Assembly (NCBI GenBank): GCA_021851895.1
Contig: JAJZQJ010000003.1
Location: forward strand, 1-63,420
DNA from: a bacterium
GTDB taxonomy: Bacteria > Patescibacteriota > Minisyncoccia > Phycocordibacterales > UBA6899
Direction of reading: 5' to 3'
DNA: 63,420 bases
Position 1 is the stretch's first letter, and every line of letters starts with the position of its first letter. This document shows, in pieces, positions 5,608 to 61,913 of the stretch. The translations under genes and the position numbers were made by a program. The notes beneath the pieces are model-generated. The model saw only the letters and a list, made by a program, of their open reading frames with translations. It was not told where the DNA came from and did not search any database.

Positions 5608-5738
5608 TGGGCTCTATATTATCATGTATTCGTTCTCCTGTATCGCAGTTTATATTTGTCTTAACCTGCGATATGTGGGATGATTTATTTGAGGCAATGC
5701 GATAAAATCTGCCCTGTCTGCGTACTACTATAGACAAC

Positions 5739-6326
5739 ATGATCGACTCTGAAAAATGCAATGGAAAGACCGATGAAGAGCTCGTCACGCGCTCGCTCGA
5801 TGATTCGAGTTGGTTTTTCTGCTTGGCGAAAAGATATGAAGAAAAACTCATACGCTATATAAGGCGAATTTCTGGTGGCGAGAGAGAGGATCAAGAGGAT
5901 ATATTGCAAGATGTCCTCATAAGTGCCTATCAGCATCTACGAAGTTTTGATACGCGGTTGAAGTTCTCATCATGGATATACCGTATAGCGCATAACACCT
6001 CGATAAGCGCGATCAGGAAGAGGGCTATTCGGCCCACCGTTCACCTCGAGGAGGATGATATGCAGAAATTCGCGGATACTATCGATGTGGAAAAGGAAGT
6101 CGATGCGAACTTTGACCACGCGCTGATACAGGAGGTGCTTGCTCGCCTCAATGAGAAATACAGTGAAGTGCTCATCTTGCGCTACCTCGACGAGAAAGAC
6201 TATCTTGAGATCGCGGATATATTGCGAAAGCCCGTAAGTACTGTTGGGAATTTGATCAGCAGAGGAAAAAAGTTGTTCAAGGCCGAATATGAAAGAACGA
6301 TAATGAATAAACAACATGGAAAATGA
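5739..6326 (+). CDS. RNA polymerase ECF-type sigma-70 factor
   Basis: Region 2 (ILQDVLISAYQHLRSFD...FSSWIYRIAHNTSISAIRK) and region 4 HTH (YLEIADILRKPVSTVGNLISRGKK). Confidence 0.85.
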   Translation: MIDSEKCNGKTDEELVTRSLDDSSWFFCLAKRYEEKLIRYIRRISGGEREDQEDILQDVLISAYQHLRSFDTRLKFSSWIYRIAHNTSISAIRKRAIRPTVHLEEDDMQKFADTIDVEKEVDANFDHALIQEVLARLNEKYSEVLILRYLDEKDYLEIADILRKPVSTVGNLISRGKKLFKAEYERTIMNKQHGK

Positions 6327-40127: not shown

Positions 40128-41405
40128 TTGCAAATTACCACCCGAACATGTTATCGTCAAGGAGTGAAACTGTCGGATTTCAAAGCAGGGAAATACCCCA
40201 TGAATCCCGGCGTTTATCGCTTCATCGACAAAGACGATAACGTGCTTTATGTGGGAAAGGCGACGAATCTGCGCCATCGTGTCCGCAGTTATTTTGACGA
40301 TGACCTTATTAAGAAAAGAGGGCGATTTATCGTTGATATGGTCGCGAAGGCTGTGCGGGTGACCACCGAAAGCTCACCATCGGTCCTTGATGCTTTGATT
40401 TTGGAGGCAGCATTGATCAAGGAGATCCAACCACCTTACAATACTCGAGAAAAGGATAATCGGAGCTTTACCTACATTGTCATCACCGAGGAGGAGTACC
40501 CAAGAGTTTTGGCGCTGCGTGAGCGTACTGTTGCGATGACTGGTGATGAGGAGAAAAAATATAAGCGCGTTTATGGTCCATTTCCAAGTGGAGCAACAGT
40601 GAGAACAATGCTGTCATTGATTCGAAAAATGATTCCATTTCGCGATCGATGTACACCACTTCAAGGAAAGCCTTGTTTTAATCGCCAACTTGGGCTTTGT
40701 CCTGGGGTGTGTGATGGTTCGATCACTTCAAGGGAGTATGCACAGAATATTAACGAGATCATCCTGTTCTTCGAGAGAAAGCGTGATCGGTTGATAAAAG
40801 AGCTTGAAAGAAACATGCGACACGCTGCGAAGGAAATGGCGTTTGAGAAGGCCTCGGAATATAAGAGGATCCTCTTTGCTTTGACTCATATCAATGACGT
40901 TGCGCTCATAAGCGATGAAACAAGATTGGCCTCACAGCGTTCTGCAAAGATCAGGAATAGGGCATTTCGTATCGAAGGATATGATATCGCGCACCTCTTT
41001 GGTACGTACACTGTTGGAGTCATGACCGTCATTCATGACGGGAGACCAGAGAAGTCGCAGTATCGGAAATTCAAAATACGAGAGCGTGAGGGTGCGATCG
41101 ATGACCTTGCGCGTCTTGAAGAGGTACTGAGGAGAAGGTTTGGTCATAAAGAATGGCAAGAACCAGATATCGTTGTCGTCGATGGAGGTAGAACACACCT
41201 TCTTCGCGCAAGGAAGGTTCTCGGTGCCCTTGGAGTTCGTTCGGCGGTCGTTGCGCTTGTAAAAGACGCGCACCATAAGGCGCGAGCGATCATCGGGAGT
41301 AAGGAGCTCGCAGAATCTTTTCGTCCTTCTATTGTACTCGTTAATCTTGAAGCACATCGATTTGCCGTCAATTATCACCGAGCATTGCGAGAAAAGCTCC
41401 CCTAG
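40128..41405 (+). CDS. uvrC: excinuclease ABC subunit C, short form lacking the C-terminal (HhH)2 domain
   Basis: GIY-YIG (PGVYRF...VLYVGKATNLRHRVRSYF), UVR domain (MAFEKASEYKRIL), endonuclease V-like domain (RIEGYDIAH). TTG start at 40128, or ATG at 40200. Confidence 0.8.
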   Translation: MQITTRTCYRQGVKLSDFKAGKYPMNPGVYRFIDKDDNVLYVGKATNLRHRVRSYFDDDLIKKRGRFIVDMVAKAVRVTTESSPSVLDALILEAALIKEIQPPYNTREKDNRSFTYIVITEEEYPRVLALRERTVAMTGDEEKKYKRVYGPFPSGATVRTMLSLIRKMIPFRDRCTPLQGKPCFNRQLGLCPGVCDGSITSREYAQNINEIILFFERKRDRLIKELERNMRHAAKEMAFEKASEYKRILFALTHINDVALISDETRLASQRSAKIRNRAFRIEGYDIAHLFGTYTVGVMTVIHDGRPEKSQYRKFKIREREGAIDDLARLEEVLRRRFGHKEWQEPDIVVVDGGRTHLLRARKVLGALGVRSAVVALVKDAHHKARAIIGSKELAESFRPSIVLVNLEAHRFAVNYHRALREKLP

Positions 41406-41452
41406 GGAGTTTTTCTCTCTGTGTATATGTTCGTAGCGAAGGGGGTTGGATG

Positions 41453-41461
41453 TGCTAGTAT
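41453..41461 (+). promoter_or_regulatory. extended -10 box (TGCTAGTAT) 6 nt upstream of ddl ATG 41468
   Basis: Leaderless-type geometry. Confidence 0.55.
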
Positions 41462-41467
41462 GTAGAT

Positions 41468-42436
41468 ATGTCATTGCATCGTAAACGAGTGGCGGTGGTA
41501 CGTGGTGGACCTTCCGCGGAATATAGCGTTTCATTGAAGACTGGTGAGGCCGTTCTTCGCCACCTCAATAGAGAGAAATATCAACCCCATGACGTCGTGC
41601 TCACACGCGATGGTGTTTGGTATATCAATGGTGTGCGCTCAACATTTGCAGACATCGCACAGCATTCGGATGTGATCTTCAACGCGATGCATGGTGAATT
41701 CGGTGAGGATGGTAAAGCACAGCAATTATTCCAATCATTCGGAATCCCTTATACAGGATCAGATGCGGTTGCTTCGGCGATCGGTATGCATAAGGGTCTC
41801 GCCAAAGAACGTTTCGCTGATGCTGGTTTAAAGGTCGCAAGAGGAGAGGTCATTCCAAGGGATGCAGAGATGTCTGGTGTTGCGTACCATCTTGCACAGG
41901 ATATGGGTTTTCCTCTTATCGTAAAGCCTGTTACTGGGGGATCTTCCGTTGCTACACGCATTGCGCGCAATGAGACGGATCTCGTCATCGCAATGGATGC
42001 AGCAGCGAAATACGGCGATGTGCTCGTCGAGGAGTATATTGAGGGTAAAGAAGGTACCTGCGCGGTTGTCGACACAGGAGACGGTGAGCATTTCGTTTTG
42101 TACCCAATAGAGATCAGGCCGCATGCTTCAAAGGAGTTGTTTGATTTCGATGCGAAGTACGATGGTAGCTCGGAGGAGATATGCCCGGGGAATTTCACGC
42201 TCGCTATGATGTCTCGGATGCGTGACGCGGCATCGCTCGCACATCGCGCGATCGGTGCTCGTCATTATTCTCGATCGGATTTCATTGTCACACCGTCAGA
42301 CGTATATATTCTCGAAATCAACACGCTTCCCGGTCTCACCGATTCATCACTACTTCCAAAGGCGCTTGAGGCAAGTAACGTTTCTATGTCAGAGTTCTTG
42401 GAGCATGTAATTGAATTGGCATTAAGGGGCAAATAA
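41468..42436 (+). CDS. ddl: D-alanine--D-alanine ligase
   Basis: VAVVRGGPSAEYSVSL, ATP-grasp motifs (IVKPVTGGSSV, EINTLPG). Confidence 0.9.
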   Translation: MSLHRKRVAVVRGGPSAEYSVSLKTGEAVLRHLNREKYQPHDVVLTRDGVWYINGVRSTFADIAQHSDVIFNAMHGEFGEDGKAQQLFQSFGIPYTGSDAVASAIGMHKGLAKERFADAGLKVARGEVIPRDAEMSGVAYHLAQDMGFPLIVKPVTGGSSVATRIARNETDLVIAMDAAAKYGDVLVEEYIEGKEGTCAVVDTGDGEHFVLYPIEIRPHASKELFDFDAKYDGSSEEICPGNFTLAMMSRMRDAASLAHRAIGARHYSRSDFIVTPSDVYILEINTLPGLTDSSLLPKALEASNVSMSEFLEHVIELALRGK

Positions 42437-42462
42437 AACACCATATTCTGGTGTTTTATTTA
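42435..42462 (+). terminator. intrinsic terminator
   Basis: aaaacacc-atattct-ggtgtttt. Confidence 0.7.
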
Positions 42463-42547
42463 TCTCTTTTGGGCGCCCTTTGTGGCCGCTATTGGGGATA
42501 TGATTCACTTGCAAATAATTTTTAATCGTGTATAGTTATTTCCACGC

Positions 42548-42620
42548 GGGCCCATAGCTCAGTTGGTAGAGCAGCGCATTTGCAATGCGAAGGTCGCAGG
42601 TTCAAATCCTGTTGGGTCCA
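42548..42620 (+). tRNA. tRNA-Ala (anticodon UGC)
   Basis: Acceptor GGGCCCA/TGGGTCC with the G3:U70 Ala identity pair, D-arm GCTC-AGTTGGTA-GAGC, anticodon loop TTTGCAA, T-arm GCAGG-TTCAAAT-CCTGT, discriminator A. No encoded CCA. Confidence 0.9.
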
Positions 42621-42665
42621 CAGAGGCAGAAAAAAGAGCGTAAGCTCTTTTTTCTTTTGCCTCTG
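42621..42665. terminator. A/T-flanked hairpin abutting the tRNA-Ala 3' end (bidirectional terminator-like)
   Basis: cagaggcagaaaaaagagc-gtaa-gctcttttttcttttgcctctg. Homologous hairpins at 61797-61840 and 63213-63257. Confidence 0.6.
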
Positions 42666-42832
42666 TGAGACCCAACAGGATTTGAATGGCGGAGGCCGCG
42701 AAGCCGGCCGCTGAGGCTCCCGGCCGAAGCGGCCGTGGCCGAGCCGGGGTCGCGAGCACTTAGCGCTTTTGGATGCAAAGCATCCAAAACGCTTTGTGAC
42801 TCGTGACCAAATCCTGTTGGGTCCTCCATTCC
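42666..42832 (-). ncRNA. candidate structured RNA unit A1: GC-rich core framed by inverted and direct copies of the tRNA-Ala 3' end
   Basis: 42669-42686 is the reverse complement of tRNA positions 42601-42618. 42807-42828 is a direct copy plus TCCA. Core 42687-42806 is homologous to 61530-61595, 61700-61775 and 63111-63190. Strand assignment is inferred. Confidence 0.45.
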
Positions 42833-43040
42833 ACTACAAGTATTTGTATTTTGATTTATGAGGTGACAGAGGGGCAAATCCTGTTGGGTCTCTCTGCTTA
42901 GGAGCGAAGCACCTATTTGCATTTTTGACTCGTGACCAAATCCTGTTGGGTCCTCCATTCTTCTATGAGTATTTGTATTTTTATTTAGTACGCTGAAGAA
43001 TACAAACTCACGTTCGGTTAATACATGCTCAAAACGCAAT
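42833..43040 (-). repeat. degenerate second unit (A2) and leader module of the tRNA-Ala-linked element
   Basis: Further tRNA-3'-end copies at 42875-42890 and 42936-42957. About 70-nt direct repeat 42791-42862 / 42919-42992. 42983-43011 resembles the leader at 61426-61454. Confidence 0.4.
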
Positions 43041-43064
43041 AAAAACACCTCTCGGTGTTTTTAT
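43041..43064 (-). terminator. intrinsic terminator of the small Cys-rich gene
   Basis: aaaaacacc-tctc-ggtgttttt. Confidence 0.65.
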
Positions 43065-43179
43065 TCGTACAACACATTCTCGTGTTTGTTCTACCTTGCA
43101 ACGTCATACGAGCAGGACACTATGAGCCGGGGAGGGCGTCCTCCTGAGATCATAGTGACCCAGTTTCATATAGAGAAAC

Positions 43180-43365
43180 CTAAGCTTCGTAAGCGAGCTC
43201 CTCTTCGAGGATGCTGCAATAGCAGTGTTCTGGGTTTGTCCATTCGCGTCCGCAACGCAAACATGGTTGCTTACCTGCTCGAGTGTTTTCTGACTCGAGC
43301 TCACGTGCGAGTGAGGCGATGGACGTGCAGAACGCACATTCACAATATGGTCGCTCGTTGGCCAT
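43180..43365 (-). CDS. small Cys-rich (zinc-ribbon-like) protein, 61 aa
   Basis: MANERPYCECAFC...QPCLRCGREWTNPEHCYC. Start set by tgttatact plus 6 nt plus ATG on the minus strand. Confidence 0.5.
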   Translation of the reverse strand: MANERPYCECAFCTSIASLARELESENTRAGKQPCLRCGREWTNPEHCYCSILEEELAYEA

Positions 43366-43371
43366 AGTGAT

Positions 43372-43380
43372 AGTATAACA
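43372..43380 (-). promoter_or_regulatory. extended -10 box (TGTTATACT, minus strand) 6 nt upstream of ATG 43365
   Basis: Leaderless-type geometry. Confidence 0.5.
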
Positions 43381-43504
43381 ATGGTAATATTCTATTGAAA
43401 ATGAAATATGTGCAAAACTTGTGCATAATATGTGTATAGTCGTGAAAAAGAGCAAAATATTGTGCTAGAATAGTGGATATGAAGGATAAAGCCACCGTAT
43501 AACC

Positions 43505-43699
43505 ATGACCGATAATTTCACATTTGAGGAGCAAAGAACTAAACTCACTGCCTTTGCTCAACCACGTGGTATGGTCGGATTCCTAATGAAGCATCTTGGT
43601 ATCCGTGATGAGCGCACTGCAAATGCGATCTTAGTCGCAGTTGCAGTCATCATTTTCATCATATCAGGGTTCATTTTTGCCAGTGCACTGAGGGTATAG
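43505..43699 (+). CDS. small membrane protein, 64 aa
   Basis: C-terminal TM helix. Followed by terminator aaaaaccgacgtc-loop-gatgtcggtttttt. Confidence 0.45.
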   Translation: MTDNFTFEEQRTKLTAFAQPRGMVGFLMKHLGIRDERTANAILVAVAVIIFIISGFIFASALRV

Positions 43700-43729
43700 A
43701 AAAACCGACGTCATATTGATGTCGGTTTT

Positions 43730-44017
43730 TTATCCACTGAGGTCGTTTTCCATTCCTGTTTCTTTCACACGCTGACGATAGGTGCAGAAGGAGCAGTGTC
43801 TGCTTGGCAGTGGCGGTCCCGCCTTGAGCGACTTCTCCATTCCTAGTTTGATGGATTTTTTTGTGACCCTAAGTGATTTTAGCGGCGAATCAAGCATAAG
43901 GCATTCGCTCGGACGAGAAACATTGTAGTGTTTTGCAAGGTAAAAACAACGAGGACAGTCGAGGAAAAGCGAGATGTCCGCATCTTCGATCTTCTTGTTT
44001 TCGCTTACTTTAGCCAT
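43730..44017 (-). CDS. small four-Cys protein (CPRC...CSFC), 95 aa
   Basis: Start MAKVSENKK set by tgctataat plus 6 nt on the minus strand. DCPRCFYL and CSFCTY resemble the Cys ligands of Cas4/AddB-type nucleases, but the nuclease core is absent. Confidence 0.5.
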   Translation of the reverse strand: MAKVSENKKIEDADISLFLDCPRCFYLAKHYNVSRPSECLMLDSPLKSLRVTKKSIKLGMEKSLKAGPPLPSRHCSFCTYRQRVKETGMENDLSG

Positions 44018-44023
44018 GGTGGC

Positions 44024-44032
44024 ATTATAGCA
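44024..44032 (-). promoter_or_regulatory. extended -10 box (TGCTATAAT, minus strand) 6 nt upstream of ATG 44017
   Basis: Leaderless-type geometry. Confidence 0.55.
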
Positions 44033-44158
44033 TACTTCCATTAAGTAAGTTACAAATTCTGCAGCTTGTGTATCATTATGTAAAACGCATGCTTGGATTC
44101 CTTTGTTCATCATAGTGATTCGCTTTTCGCTTCGGTCCTTTTCGTGTATATTACTGTT

Positions 44159-46645
44159 ATGAATAAAGGAAGATCAGAGCGCTATGATCATAAGCAAATA
44201 GAGGATAAGTGGCATGAACATTGGAATGCTATGTCGCTTTATCGTACTCAAGAAGACCCTTCGAGGCCGAAGTGTTATGTACTCGACATGTTTCCATATC
44301 CATCTGGAGACGGATTGCATGTCGGTCACCCGAAGGGCTACATCGCTACGGATGTCTATTCTCGATTCAAGCGTATGCAGGGTTTTAACGTTCTGCATCC
44401 TATGGGCTGGGACGCCTTTGGTCTTCCTGCAGAGCAGTTTGCGCTGAAGAATAAGGTGCATCCTAGTACTGCTGTCGCGAAGAATTGCCATCGATTCAAA
44501 GAGCAACTTGAGAAGATAGGTTTTAACTATGATTGGGAAAGAGAGATCAATACCACTGATCCTAATTATTACAAATGGACACAGTGGATATTTTTGCGTC
44601 TCTTTGAGCGAGGCCTCGCTTATCAGTCGAATGAGCCTATTAATTGGTGTCCTTCGTGTCTGACTGGCCTCGCTAACGAGGATCTTGATGGAGACCGATG
44701 TGAGCGCTGCGGTACAAAGGTTGAGAAAAAGCCTATAAGGCAATGGGTGCTCCGCATCACTGCTTATGCTGATCGCATGCTTGAAGATCTCGATTTGCTG
44801 GAGTGGCCAGCATCCATCAAGGAGAGTCAGCGCAATTGGATAGGGAAGAGCGAGGGTGCAATGATCGATTTTGTGCATGACGGTGCTACTACAAGCGTTG
44901 CGCCGCTTTCTGTATTCACGACGAGACCAGATACTTTATTTGGCGTAACCTATGTTGCAATCAGTCCCGAGCTCACTTTGCGCTACCTCGCTGAGAAGAT
45001 CATTCATGAAAACGCTGAGATCGAGGATTTCGCAAAGAATCTTATTGCAGAGGCGGCAGATGTCGAATATGGTGCTGTTACTGAAAAGAGGGGCGCTTTC
45101 ACTGGTGCATATGTCATTCATCCGATCACCCAGGCGAAGATCCCATTATGGGTCGCAAATTACGTGCTGAGTGATTATGGGACGGGTGCAGTGATGGGTG
45201 TTCCCGCACATGATGTGCGTGATTTCGATTTTGCAAAGCAGTATGGCATCGACGTGCTCACTGTAGTTTCGCCTCAAAAAGATACACCATCTGATACCCA
45301 TCTCATGGAAGCCTATGAGGGAGATGGATATCTCATAAATTCCAGGGAATTCAATGGACGAGAAAATAGGGAGGCGATTGTTGCAATTGTGAAAGCGGCA
45401 AAGGGAAAGCAGCAAACGCAGTACCGACTGAAGGATTGGGTATTTGCACGTCAGCGCTATTGGGGTGAACCTATCCCACTCGTGTTCGAGGGGGACTCTG
45501 ACGTCGCATATCCTGTCGATGAGAGTGATCTCCCTGTGCTCCTGCCTCAGGTGGAATTCTATGAACCTACCGGCACTGGGGAGTCTCCTCTTGCAGGCAT
45601 ACCTGAATGGGTGAATGTGAAGGGGTACATCACAGAGAGAGGGACATTCAAGCTCGTTACGAATGAGCATCCCGCACCAGTAGGCACGAAGGTAAAGGAT
45701 TTCCGCAGAGAGACAAATACAATGCCTCAATGGGCAGGTTCCTCTTGGTACTACTTACGCTATATCGACCCAAAGAATAATGAGAAACTCGTTGATCCGA
45801 CGCTAGAACACTATTGGTCTCCTGTAGATGTGTATGTCGGCGGAGCCGAGCATGCGACACGCCACCTTATTTATGCACGTTTCTGGCATAAGGTACTTTA
45901 CGATATCGGCGTTGTTTCAAAACCTGAGCCATTTGCTCGCTTACAGAATGTGGGATTGATCATGGCTTCGGATGGTCGCAAGATGTCAAAGCGCTATGGA
46001 AATGTGATCAACCCCGATGACGTTATTGAGACGTTCGGCGCTGATTCACTTCGACTCTACGAGATGTTCATGGGGCCATTTGATCAGTCGATCGCTTGGT
46101 CGACGGACAATATGGTGGGAGCGCGTCGTTTCGTCGAGCGCGTTTGGAAACTCGCAGATAAGGTTGGGGACATTGAGGAGGATAAGCTCACTGAGGTGCT
46201 CCTTCATCAGACGATCGCAAAAGTAGGTGCTGATATCGAAGCTTTCAAGTTCAATACTGCCGTTGCGCAATTGATGATTTGTCTCAATGGGCTTGAAAAG
46301 CTTGTCGCTGTTCCTTTGCGGTCCTATAGGGCATTCTTGCTTTTGCTCGCCCCTTTCGCGCCGCACATGACCGAGGAGGTCTGGCTGCGTTTTGAGGAAT
46401 CTGAGTCAATACATATTCAGCAGTGGCCGATATTCGATCCCGCAAAGACGGTAGGGAACACTGTGGCGATTGCGGTTCAAGTCGGCGGGAAGCATCGTGA
46501 TACGCTGCACCTCGAGAGAGATGCGTCGAAAGAGGATGTTGAAAAGACTGCCCGCGAACGCGATCTTGTGAAAAAGTGGATCGATGGTGTCGAGGTAAAA
46601 AAGGTAATCGTCGTCCCTAATAAGATCATCAATTTCGTCATATAG
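44159..46645 (+). CDS. leuS: leucine--tRNA ligase
   Basis: YVLDMFPYPSGDGLHVGHP (HIGH), KMSKR (KMSKS), CP1 editing domain. Start at MNKGRSERY after TATATT plus 6 nt. Confidence 0.95.
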   Translation: MNKGRSERYDHKQIEDKWHEHWNAMSLYRTQEDPSRPKCYVLDMFPYPSGDGLHVGHPKGYIATDVYSRFKRMQGFNVLHPMGWDAFGLPAEQFALKNKVHPSTAVAKNCHRFKEQLEKIGFNYDWEREINTTDPNYYKWTQWIFLRLFERGLAYQSNEPINWCPSCLTGLANEDLDGDRCERCGTKVEKKPIRQWVLRITAYADRMLEDLDLLEWPASIKESQRNWIGKSEGAMIDFVHDGATTSVAPLSVFTTRPDTLFGVTYVAISPELTLRYLAEKIIHENAEIEDFAKNLIAEAADVEYGAVTEKRGAFTGAYVIHPITQAKIPLWVANYVLSDYGTGAVMGVPAHDVRDFDFAKQYGIDVLTVVSPQKDTPSDTHLMEAYEGDGYLINSREFNGRENREAIVAIVKAAKGKQQTQYRLKDWVFARQRYWGEPIPLVFEGDSDVAYPVDESDLPVLLPQVEFYEPTGTGESPLAGIPEWVNVKGYITERGTFKLVTNEHPAPVGTKVKDFRRETNTMPQWAGSSWYYLRYIDPKNNEKLVDPTLEHYWSPVDVYVGGAEHATRHLIYARFWHKVLYDIGVVSKPEPFARLQNVGLIMASDGRKMSKRYGNVINPDDVIETFGADSLRLYEMFMGPFDQSIAWSTDNMVGARRFVERVWKLADKVGDIEEDKLTEVLLHQTIAKVGADIEAFKFNTAVAQLMICLNGLEKLVAVPLRSYRAFLLLLAPFAPHMTEEVWLRFEESESIHIQQWPIFDPAKTVGNTVAIAVQVGGKHRDTLHLERDASKEDVEKTARERDLVKKWIDGVEVKKVIVVPNKIINFVI

Positions 46646-61796: not shown

Positions 61797-61840
61797 CAAC
61801 AAAAACAAAAAAAACGCTTTCGCGTCTTTTTTGTTTGTTG
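61797..61840. terminator. A/T-flanked hairpin abutting the tRNA-Lys 3' end (bidirectional terminator-like)
   Basis: caacaaaaacaaaaaaaacgc-tttc-gcgtcttttttgtttgttg. A truncated copy lies at 61613-61644. Confidence 0.6.
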
Positions 61841-61913
61841 TCCCCCCTCAAGGACTCGAACCTTGGACCGTCTCGTTAAGAGCGAGCTGCTCTACCAACT
61901 GAGCTAAGGAGGG
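61841..61913 (-). tRNA. tRNA-Lys (anticodon CUU)
   Basis: Reverse complement folds as acceptor CCCTCCT/AGGGGGG, D-arm GCTC-AGTTGGTA-GAGC, anticodon loop CTCTTAA, T-arm CAAGG-TTCGAGT-CCTTG, discriminator A. Has an unusual C1:G72 pair and a G27.A43 mismatch. Confidence 0.8.

Follow-up and report, generated by a model that had tools for sequence, protein, structure and literature searches.

Two copies of a 22-mer, CCAAATCCTGTTGGGTCCTCCA, lie downstream of the tRNA-Ala(UGC) gene of a patescibacterial genome and both end in a CCA that the gene itself does not encode, which raises the question of where these CCA-bearing tRNA ends come from. The window, i.e., the whole stretch of 63,420 nucleotides (nt) that was analysed, is contig C5:1-63420 of this genome (G000; 1.10 Mb, 16 contigs, 99.7% complete), which we compared with its congeners G001 and G002. 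An earlier note on the window had pointed to a formal likeness between the 22-mers, read on the minus strand, and the primer-binding sites (PBS) of retroelements. Our analysis suggests a different origin: the 22-mers are probably the right-hand arms of structured, gene-less cassettes that are stacked 3' of tRNA-Ala(UGC), attached to the end of the gene. The arms are copies of the gene end made at the DNA level, the scaffold is a conserved fold of the sense strand, and units are gained or lost as blocks bounded by repeats. The CCA detail does not indicate that reverse transcription is primed by tRNA in these bacteria. Cassettes of this kind, ~200 nt long and free of genes, occupy the 3' flank of about two thirds of the tRNA genes in a streamlined 1.1-Mb genome and recur across the Patescibacteria, which hold a large share of bacterial diversity and are almost unstudied experimentally.

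Layout of the cassette stack at tRNA-Ala(UGC)

The tRNA-Ala(UGC) gene was located at positions 42548-42620 of the plus strand (ARAGORN; Rfam RF00005, 71.4 bits), with the G3:U70 pair and the discriminator, A73, at 42620. As stated in the earlier note, the gene has no encoded CCA and CAG follows its end directly. It is not strictly CCA-free, however, as it reads A73-C-A-G and is one C short of the full triplet. The 22-mer was confirmed to be present exactly twice, at 42807-42828 and 42936-42957. Its 16-nt core, CAAATCCTGTTGGGTC, has five matches at the locus, compared to 0.01 expected by chance, and was not found elsewhere in the 1.10-Mb genome. One match lies in the gene (42603), one is inverted (42669-42684) and three are direct (at 42808, 42875 and 42937), so that the former count of three copies, the gene plus two, has to be raised to five, one of them inverted.

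Both CCA-bearing copies lie within one 66-nt direct repeat (42793-42858 and 42922-42987, 91% identical). A single duplication therefore accounts for the pair, and the two copies are not independent but count as one event. In copy 1, the tRNA-derived identity covers 17 nt only, C56 to C72 (42808-42824). The first C of the 22-mer (42807) is a mismatch to U55; it is the last base of the scaffold 3' domain described below and pairs with scaffold G42749 in the minimum free energy (MFE) structure. The sequence 3' of the CCA of the copy (TTC...) is unrelated to the present trailer of tRNA-Ala.

The order of the cassette is trailer, terminator-like hairpin, inverted arm, ~120-nt scaffold and direct arm, all read on the plus strand. 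Together with its mirror image, the end of the gene forms a near-perfect palindrome of 86 nt (42601-42686; inverted repeats I1, I7 and I10), which is made up of tRNA nt 54-73, the trailer, the hairpin loop and the mirrored sequence. The trailer and hairpin (42621-42668), with the core AAAAAAGAGC-GTAA-GCTCTTTTTT at 42630-42653, are part of the cassette; a simple terminator scan did not flag this hairpin, and "terminator-like" refers here to its form only, an A-tract, a GC stem and a T-tract. The inverted or left arm (42669-42686) is the exact complement of tRNA-Ala nt 54-71. Abutting the palindrome, a GC-rich block of ~120 nt (42687-42807) represents the scaffold. Its 5' domain (42687-42745; GGCGGAGGC...GCCGAGCC) is of module type a, has 33 copies in the genome and contains, in line with its MFE fold, covarying helices (GGCCG/TGGCC, GGCTG/TAGCC and GCCGG/TCGGC). 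The 3' domain (42746-42807) consists of GGGGTC GCGAG CACTTAG, a variable hairpin and CTTTGTGACTCGTGAC, and is supported by a 56-copy alignment, covariation and MFE pairs. Copy 1 of the direct or right arm (42808-42824) is identical to tRNA nt 56-72 and is predicted to pair with the inverted arm, thereby closing a three-way junction. In its TCCA tail (42825-42828), the predicted partners are A42668 for the T and G42667 and G42665 for the two C.

Further units follow on the same strand. An AT-rich spacer (42829-42861), the first 30 nt of which are the end of the 66-nt repeat unit (family D1), leads to a 13-nt relic end of another scaffold type, z (42862-42874; GGTGACAGAGGGG), whose motif is common to the ends of intact cassettes at tRNA-Tyr, Lys, Val and Arg. 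Copy 2 of the direct arm (42875-42892; tRNA nt 56-71 plus TC) is an 18-nt perfect complement of 42667-42684 (I2). Next come the truncated 3' domain of an older type-y scaffold, recognized by sequence (42897-42935; CTTAG...TTTTTGACTCGTGA), and the second 22-mer, which comprises the scaffold C, copy 3 of the direct arm (42937-42953) and TCCA (42954-42957). A second copy of the AT-rich spacer (42958-42987; D1) ends the repeat. The locus thus holds one complete unit of ~205 nt (about 42603-42807, then the arm at 42808-42824) and, behind it, two truncated older units (42862-42892 and 42897-42957). The first terminator-like structure past the stack is a hairpin with a T-run, AATAAAAACACC-TCTC-GGTGTTTTTATT (43038-43065; I9).

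Scaffold folding and occurrence behind other tRNA genes

A comparison of each tRNA with its flanks revealed that about 31 of the 46 tRNA genes of G000 are accompanied by an inverted copy of their own nt ~54-71, mostly 40-80 nt downstream and abutting a conserved scaffold. A direct copy is present as well behind many tRNA genes, at a distance of about 190-230 nt. The scaffolds fall into two classes, A (..TCGAA-aGGCGGAGGC..) and B (..TCGAAC-GGGAAAGGGTCGGG..). Iterated nhmmer searches yielded 33 class-A scaffolds, nearly all of which share the orientation of a tRNA and follow it at 88-130 nt. Scaffolds are built from modules, three kinds on the 5' side and three or four on the 3' side, which are combined in many ways. 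The cassette order, scaffold homology with other Patescibacteria and covariation are all found at the tRNA-Ala locus.

A third scaffold class, ..TCGAAG-AGCTTTT..TATTTGTGAAGAG..GGTGTACAGAAGC.., was seen behind tRNA-Ala in relatives of genus g2 (loci L010, L011, L018, L019, L020 and L025). Its arms are arranged in the same way, with one further hairpin located between terminator and inverted arm. Unrelated scaffolds thus share one insertion logic.

The sense-strand RNA of the Ala unit (42665-42832) is predicted to form a three-way junction at -104.6 kcal/mol (z = -9.9), in which the inverted and direct arms are the closing stem of 15-17 base pairs (bp). The predicted fold of the opposite strand is 10 kcal/mol worse. 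Across the scaffold copies of this genome, the tRNA-sense strand was the more stable one in 25 of 27, with a mean difference of 4.8 kcal/mol, a count whose significance is overstated by the relatedness of the copies. RNAalifold was uninformative on the mixed class-A alignment, the modules being different, and we relied instead on the energies of single copies and on an alignment of the 3' domain.

To cover other lineages, one genome per species was scanned for the 3'-domain pattern in 185,579 species. At least 115 loci carry the pattern; among the matches listed (80 loci) most are from Patescibacteria, including Paceibacteria and Saccharibacteria, and in 62 of 118 matches a same-strand tRNA lies no more than 400 nt upstream. 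Alignment of 56 copies, all distinct and from many Patescibacteria, gave a consensus hairpin with double (compensatory) changes in 7 of 17 pairs. The domain has the shape of an imperfect hairpin with a conserved base, a bulged A, a variable terminal part and strand-specific G:U (or G:T) pairs. One of these pairs is G:U in 55 of the 56 scaffolds, and another is GU in 34, GC in 16 and AU in 5. Near-invariant G:U pairs would be C:A mismatches on the other strand, which places the fold on the tRNA-sense strand. As judged from sequence comparison, the cassette scaffold is a nucleic acid folded in the sense orientation, either RNA or single-stranded DNA. Searches of 41000-44500 against Rfam at E <= 1 returned, beyond tRNA-Ala, only spurious microRNA-type matches on the long hairpin, and at the gathering score only tRNAs were matched in the window and three further loci. 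Full-text literature searches on tRNA repeats of Patescibacteria, on RtT/tyrT and on structured RNAs of the CPR yielded no description of the cassette family, and recent preprints that seemed relevant are silent on it; the family is uncatalogued.

A PBS would lie on the minus strand, and a structure of the sense strand speaks against any functional site there. The proposal that the minus-strand 22-mers are retroelement primer-binding sites, primed by mature tRNA-Ala, draws on the 20 of 22 positions that are complementary to a CCA-tailed tRNA-Ala 3' end, and like the PBS of retroviruses and long terminal repeat (LTR) retrotransposons the arms are ~18-22 nt related to a tRNA 3' end. The complement had been described as complete except for the discriminator; that mismatch (T versus A73) is there, but U55 is mismatched too and contiguous identity is confined to nt 56-72. 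Moreover, a search for reverse transcriptase (PF00078, RVT_1) gave no match in the 99.7%-complete genome, while control genomes were matched, and no open reading frame (ORF) of the region matches a family. The inverted arm stops at nt 71 and has no complement to a CCA, and the arms at other tRNAs carry gene trailers, not CCA. The cassettes thus differ from PBS-bearing elements in having neither reverse transcriptase nor LTR, in a complement interrupted at the discriminator, in a conserved structure of the opposite sense and in arms that derive from the gene and not from the mature tRNA. We consider priming by tRNA-Ala extremely unlikely and have dropped this part of the earlier note.

Turnover between sister species and candidate routes of movement

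The stack is variable within the genus. At the tRNA-Ala locus the arms are conserved, but the module combination between them is different in each of the three species (G000, 42687-42807; G002, locus L007; G001, locus L008), which indicates a rapid exchange of modules among copies. Compensatory changes distinguish the trailer stems of the species (CAGAGGCAG/CTGCCTCTG, CAGAGGTAG/CTACCTCTG and CAAAGACAAG/CTTATGTCTTTG), so that the palindrome is maintained and not accidental. When all tRNA loci of both congeners were included, one and the same tRNA was often found to have different cassette classes in the sister species: for Ala-cgc, Arg-gcg and Gly-ccc, the class is A in G000 but B in G002. At Gly-ccc and Ala-cgc, G002 has a proximal unit followed by a truncated older 3' domain and an arm, which is the layout of 42862-42957.

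The clearest case of a unit present in one species and absent from its sister is tRNA-Arg(gcg). In G000 the tRNA is followed by a class-A unit, a 19-nt direct arm, a class-B unit and an arm; in G002 it is followed by a class-B unit. Positions 243-465 of G000 align with positions 7-222 of G002 at 87.5%. It follows that one unit is an indel bounded by direct repeats, which comprises nt 56-73, the trailer, the hairpin, the inverted arm and the scaffold. The tRNA-Gln(ttg) site is empty in G000 and filled in G002, with flanks that cannot be aligned and hence give no boundaries. The trailer and terminator hairpin of this G002 locus (L189), 45 nt in length, are identical to those of tRNA-Gln(ctg) in G000 (contig C14, 16818-16862), and the arms and scaffold classes of the two differ. 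An identical trailer behind two tRNA-Gln isoacceptors in two species implies that trailer and terminator form a mobile module of their own.

Integrative elements classically leave their footprint behind a tRNA gene as direct repeats of its 3' end, and the T-loop, where the identity begins, is reportedly a known crossover sublocation. The repeats behind tRNA-Ala could accordingly be read as att remnants (attL/attR or attP) of an integrase-bearing phage or island that once sat at tRNA-Ala and carried a CCA-containing core from another host. Only about 120-200 nt separate the repeats, however, which leaves no coding capacity, and the same architecture with shared scaffolds stands behind most tRNAs. 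A 20-mer of the sequence is absent from 2.9 million viral contigs (IMG/VR). The search for an integrase did return one tyrosine recombinase (PF00589), but it is Xer-like and lies on another contig (C1, region 5626-6147). It scores 246.6 bits with XerD (cut-off 329.6), 236 with XerC and 226.5 with XerA_Arch (cut-off 220), the last being the only listed model above its own cut-off; integron-integrase models give 136.6 bits (cut-off 265) and 91.7 bits (cut-off 435). TnpB (PF07282) is absent from the genome, where IS110, IS200 and serine recombinases were not searched. An origin as att remnants is very unlikely in our view. Of the capture by a mobile element proposed before, a DNA-level copy tied to an element at the tRNA gene stands, but that element is a gene-less cassette and no phage or island integrase goes with it. 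The lack of reverse transcriptase and TnpB, the Xer-like nature of the single tyrosine recombinase and the absence of the 20-mer from IMG/VR led us to reject both the PBS and the conventional prophage, and tRNA-end fragments in these genomes should not be annotated as prophage att sites.

The cassettes nonetheless resemble integrative elements of tRNA genes (Campbell-type attL/attR) and their integrase-less relics (cis-mobilizable elements, CIMEs, and derivatives like miniature inverted-repeat transposable elements, MITEs) in that they insert in the 3' part of the tRNA, restore the gene and leave a direct repeat downstream, that repeated events stack units, and that a unit can be present or absent between sister species, as with the 19-nt repeats at tRNA-Arg. 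Unlike these elements, a cassette has ~200 nt, no genes and no integrase in or beside the unit, brings a trailer and a terminator, an extra inverted copy of the tRNA end and a strand-specific folded scaffold, and uses the same scaffolds at nearly all tRNA species with arms that match each of them.

A complete unit comprises a replacement tRNA 3' end, a trailer, a terminator-like hairpin, an inverted arm (nt 54-71), a two-domain scaffold and a direct copy (nt 56-72), and units would enter or duplicate through an exchange with the T-loop at its centre. Both arm boundaries fall in the T-loop in the order A - trailer - loop - trailer' - A' - scaffold - A, which suggests two candidate routes. A circular or folded single strand, its stem formed by A/A' and the trailer, might open at the T-loop and join the T-loop of the gene; the enzyme would be the only one of its kind in the cell, the Xer-type recombinase, as with attC or CTX-type sites. 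Alternatively, replication might fold back at the terminator hairpin and so make the mirror arm from the local gene, followed by template switching at the self-complementary TTCGAA. Template switching would explain why arms match the local tRNA while scaffolds are shared.

The first route has parallels in integron attC sites and in the attP(+) of CTX phage, which is handled by XerCD. The resemblance extends to the shape of the hairpin, which is imperfect, conserved in its lower stem, bulged and variable at its apex, whether it is RNA or single-stranded DNA; to inverted half-sites that could fold into a target-mimicking duplex; and to an element that lacks a recombinase gene. The cassette order would be the one expected from inserting a folded circle cut at the T-loop. 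In contrast to attC, there is no integron integrase but one Xer-type enzyme only, the T-loop GTTCGAA does not fit the GTTRRRY core, and the cassettes have no cargo gene.

Read-through of the tRNA terminator would yield a scaffold RNA, and a cassette may be either a selfish element or a functional RNA made in this way. We put forward, as a speculation that we would sooner doubt than assert, that the cassettes are protein-less self-propagating elements which enter the T-loop, as an Xer-handled folded strand or by template switching at TTCGAA, and rewrite the 3' end, trailer and terminator of the gene, or that the scaffold RNA is a guide addressed to the tRNA, with its 5' 18 nt paired to the 3' half of that tRNA. 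The cassettes supply tRNA gene ends and terminators and turn over between sister species; they would reveal either enzyme-less movement of DNA or a new class of tRNA-linked RNA.

The CCA tail, and further elements around tRNA genes

To judge the CCA, we used a set of 228 distinct tRNA genes, drawn from this genome and from every locus retrieved, in which acceptor pairing served to place base 72. Of the 228 genes, 35 (15%) read CCA 3' of the discriminator, and 69% read CA plus another base; C74 is invariant among the twelve commonest trinucleotides, which account for 223 of 228 genes. In G000 alone, the tail is N-CA in 38 of 45 tRNA genes and CCA in 6, and the window itself contains tails of the N-CA type at tRNA-Ala (42620-42622), tRNA-Lys (61840-61913) and tRNA-Gln (502-573). 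An encoded CCA that lacks one C hints at a particular regime of 3' processing or CCA repair in these Patescibacteria.

Direct arms were sampled as copies of nt 59-72 with <=2 mismatches within 900 nt downstream of the gene (n=68). N-CCA stands behind 10 of the 68 arms, i.e., 15%, the same as for tRNA genes. A copy with CCA next to a gene without it was seen in 7 cases, or 5 lineages, as two copies of G000 and one of G002 form one lineage; the reverse, a gene with CCA and a copy without it, was seen in 5 cases. Differences between the tails of gene and copy are mostly one-base changes between CA and CCA. Such symmetrical gain and loss fits drift, as expected at a position made neutral by the CCA-adding enzyme. 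The first four bases of the tail of the gene are kept in 26 of 68 arms, several of which run through the whole trailer and hairpin. Because a mature tRNA has no trailer and these arms do, the arms are copies of DNA. In G002 the TCCA of copy 1 is kept, but the counterpart of the second 22-mer reads GGGTCC-TCTGCATTC without CCA, so that the CCA is not conserved even within the genus. Most likely, the TCCA is incidental, a flank that happens to read N-CCA and does not come from mature tRNA. The earlier suggestion that the CCA might be a chance match of 3 nt may thus be right; the tail may also be the inherited end of a CCA-encoding gene.

We entertain this second origin tentatively, as the less likely one: TCCA would be a relic of an ancestral CCA-encoding end of tRNA-Ala that was displaced when a cassette entered the T-loop and created the new end A-CAG, had its A mutated to T and was duplicated with its flank. 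In accordance with this, tRNA-Ala(UGC) genes with A73 and an encoded CCA exist in relatives of the same family and order (L010, L011, L031 and L033), CCA is encoded by 15% of tRNA genes in these lineages, the stacking of units is directly supported at tRNA-Arg, and the TTC... after the CCA is unlike the present trailer, as expected of an older flank. On the other hand, the tRNA-Ala gene with U73 that had been called for was found neither in this genome nor in 30 related loci, which makes one more mutation necessary. A terminator-like hairpin is missing from the flank 3' of TCCA, and a relative with an empty site and a CCATTC flank was not found. In addition, T at the discriminator position is common to the flank of the mirror arm (sense GGGTC-TCA) and to copy 2 (GGGTC-TC), which points to copying from the cassette side and not from an old gene.

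It could also be argued that the tail has a function. By mimicking the acceptor and T stems, the closing stem would let tRNA-processing enzymes excise the cassette RNA, with TCCA as a functional N-CCA 3' end. In favour of this, the predicted closing stem (15-17 bp) leaves TCCA as a 3' overhang in an arrangement like that of a tRNA acceptor end, the fold of the scaffold is that of the sense strand, TCCA is conserved in copy 1 of G002, and at other loci the trailer and terminator of the tRNA recur behind the arm, which would be processed alike. RtT RNA, the 178-bp tandem repeats directly behind E. coli tyrT (RF00391), resembles the cassettes in layout only, with repeat units behind a tRNA gene that each hold a tRNA 3' end. 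The tRNA 3'-end copies of these E. coli repeats include CCA, and the repeats are transcribed with the tRNA and released by processing. RtT repeats differ from the cassettes in that they lack an inverted arm and are known from one enterobacterial locus, whereas the cassettes stand behind most tRNAs of a phylum-level group; RF00391 was not among the Rfam matches at E <= 1 in 41000-44500, nor at the gathering score in the window and three loci. What makes processing improbable is that CCA is no commoner after arms than after genes, that many copies have a decayed direct arm and can form no closing stem, that the CCA is lost in the third copy of G002, and that three bases of the tail, T, C and C, are paired and not single-stranded in the MFE structure.

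Several observations count against our view of the 22-mers as arms of inserted cassettes with an incidental CCA. At tRNA-Arg, the indel may have arisen by insertion beside the tRNA body or, which would be unfavourable to our view, by deletion between repeats. An empty tRNA-Ala site was not found in the genus, where 3 of 3 species are occupied, and we therefore infer insertion at tRNA-Ala from other loci. The direct arm of G001 is decayed (6 of 19 positions), with an almost intact copy of trailer and hairpin right behind it, a pattern that is not predicted by simple neutral decay. The retention of the copy-1 TCCA in G002, together with its three predicted pairs with GTGA (42665-42668), may reflect weak selection. 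Finally, five lineages with a CCA-bearing copy exceed the naive random expectation of 1.6%, an excess that is explained only because the tails descend from N-CA or N-CCA tails of genes.

The tRNA-Ala gene is flanked by a D-Ala-D-Ala ligase gene on its 5' side and leuS on its 3' side. A promoter-like site, TTGCAA-16-TATAGT (42509-42536, plus strand), precedes it, as judged by consensus match only. None of the ORFs in 42.4-44.1 kb matches a family. One ORF of 148 amino acids (42602-43048, minus strand) spans the whole cassette stack and has no Pfam match; it is probably an artefact of the GC-rich repeats, and gene callers may annotate it as a hypothetical protein. In a metagenome-assembled genome of a distant member of the Parcubacteria (L083), the direct arm of tRNA-Ala(UGC) ends GGGTC-TCTCAGC, close to the GGGTC-TCTCTGC of copy 2 (window 42886-42896).

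A second cassette family was seen on the 5' side of tRNA genes. Upstream of the intact tRNA-Gln(UUG) gene (502-573), on the minus strand, positions 574-766 hold an element of ~170 nt (..CCAGGCATTCTTGCCCGATAAGG..CATCAACTCACGCC..) and an exact copy of tRNA nt 1-20 (747-766), so that the order is copy, element, gene. Relatives of this element occur after tRNA-Arg(CCU) on contig C13 and inside a partial copy of tRNA-Ile(GAU) on contig C9, and several other tRNAs have partial copies of their 5' end 160-290 nt upstream.

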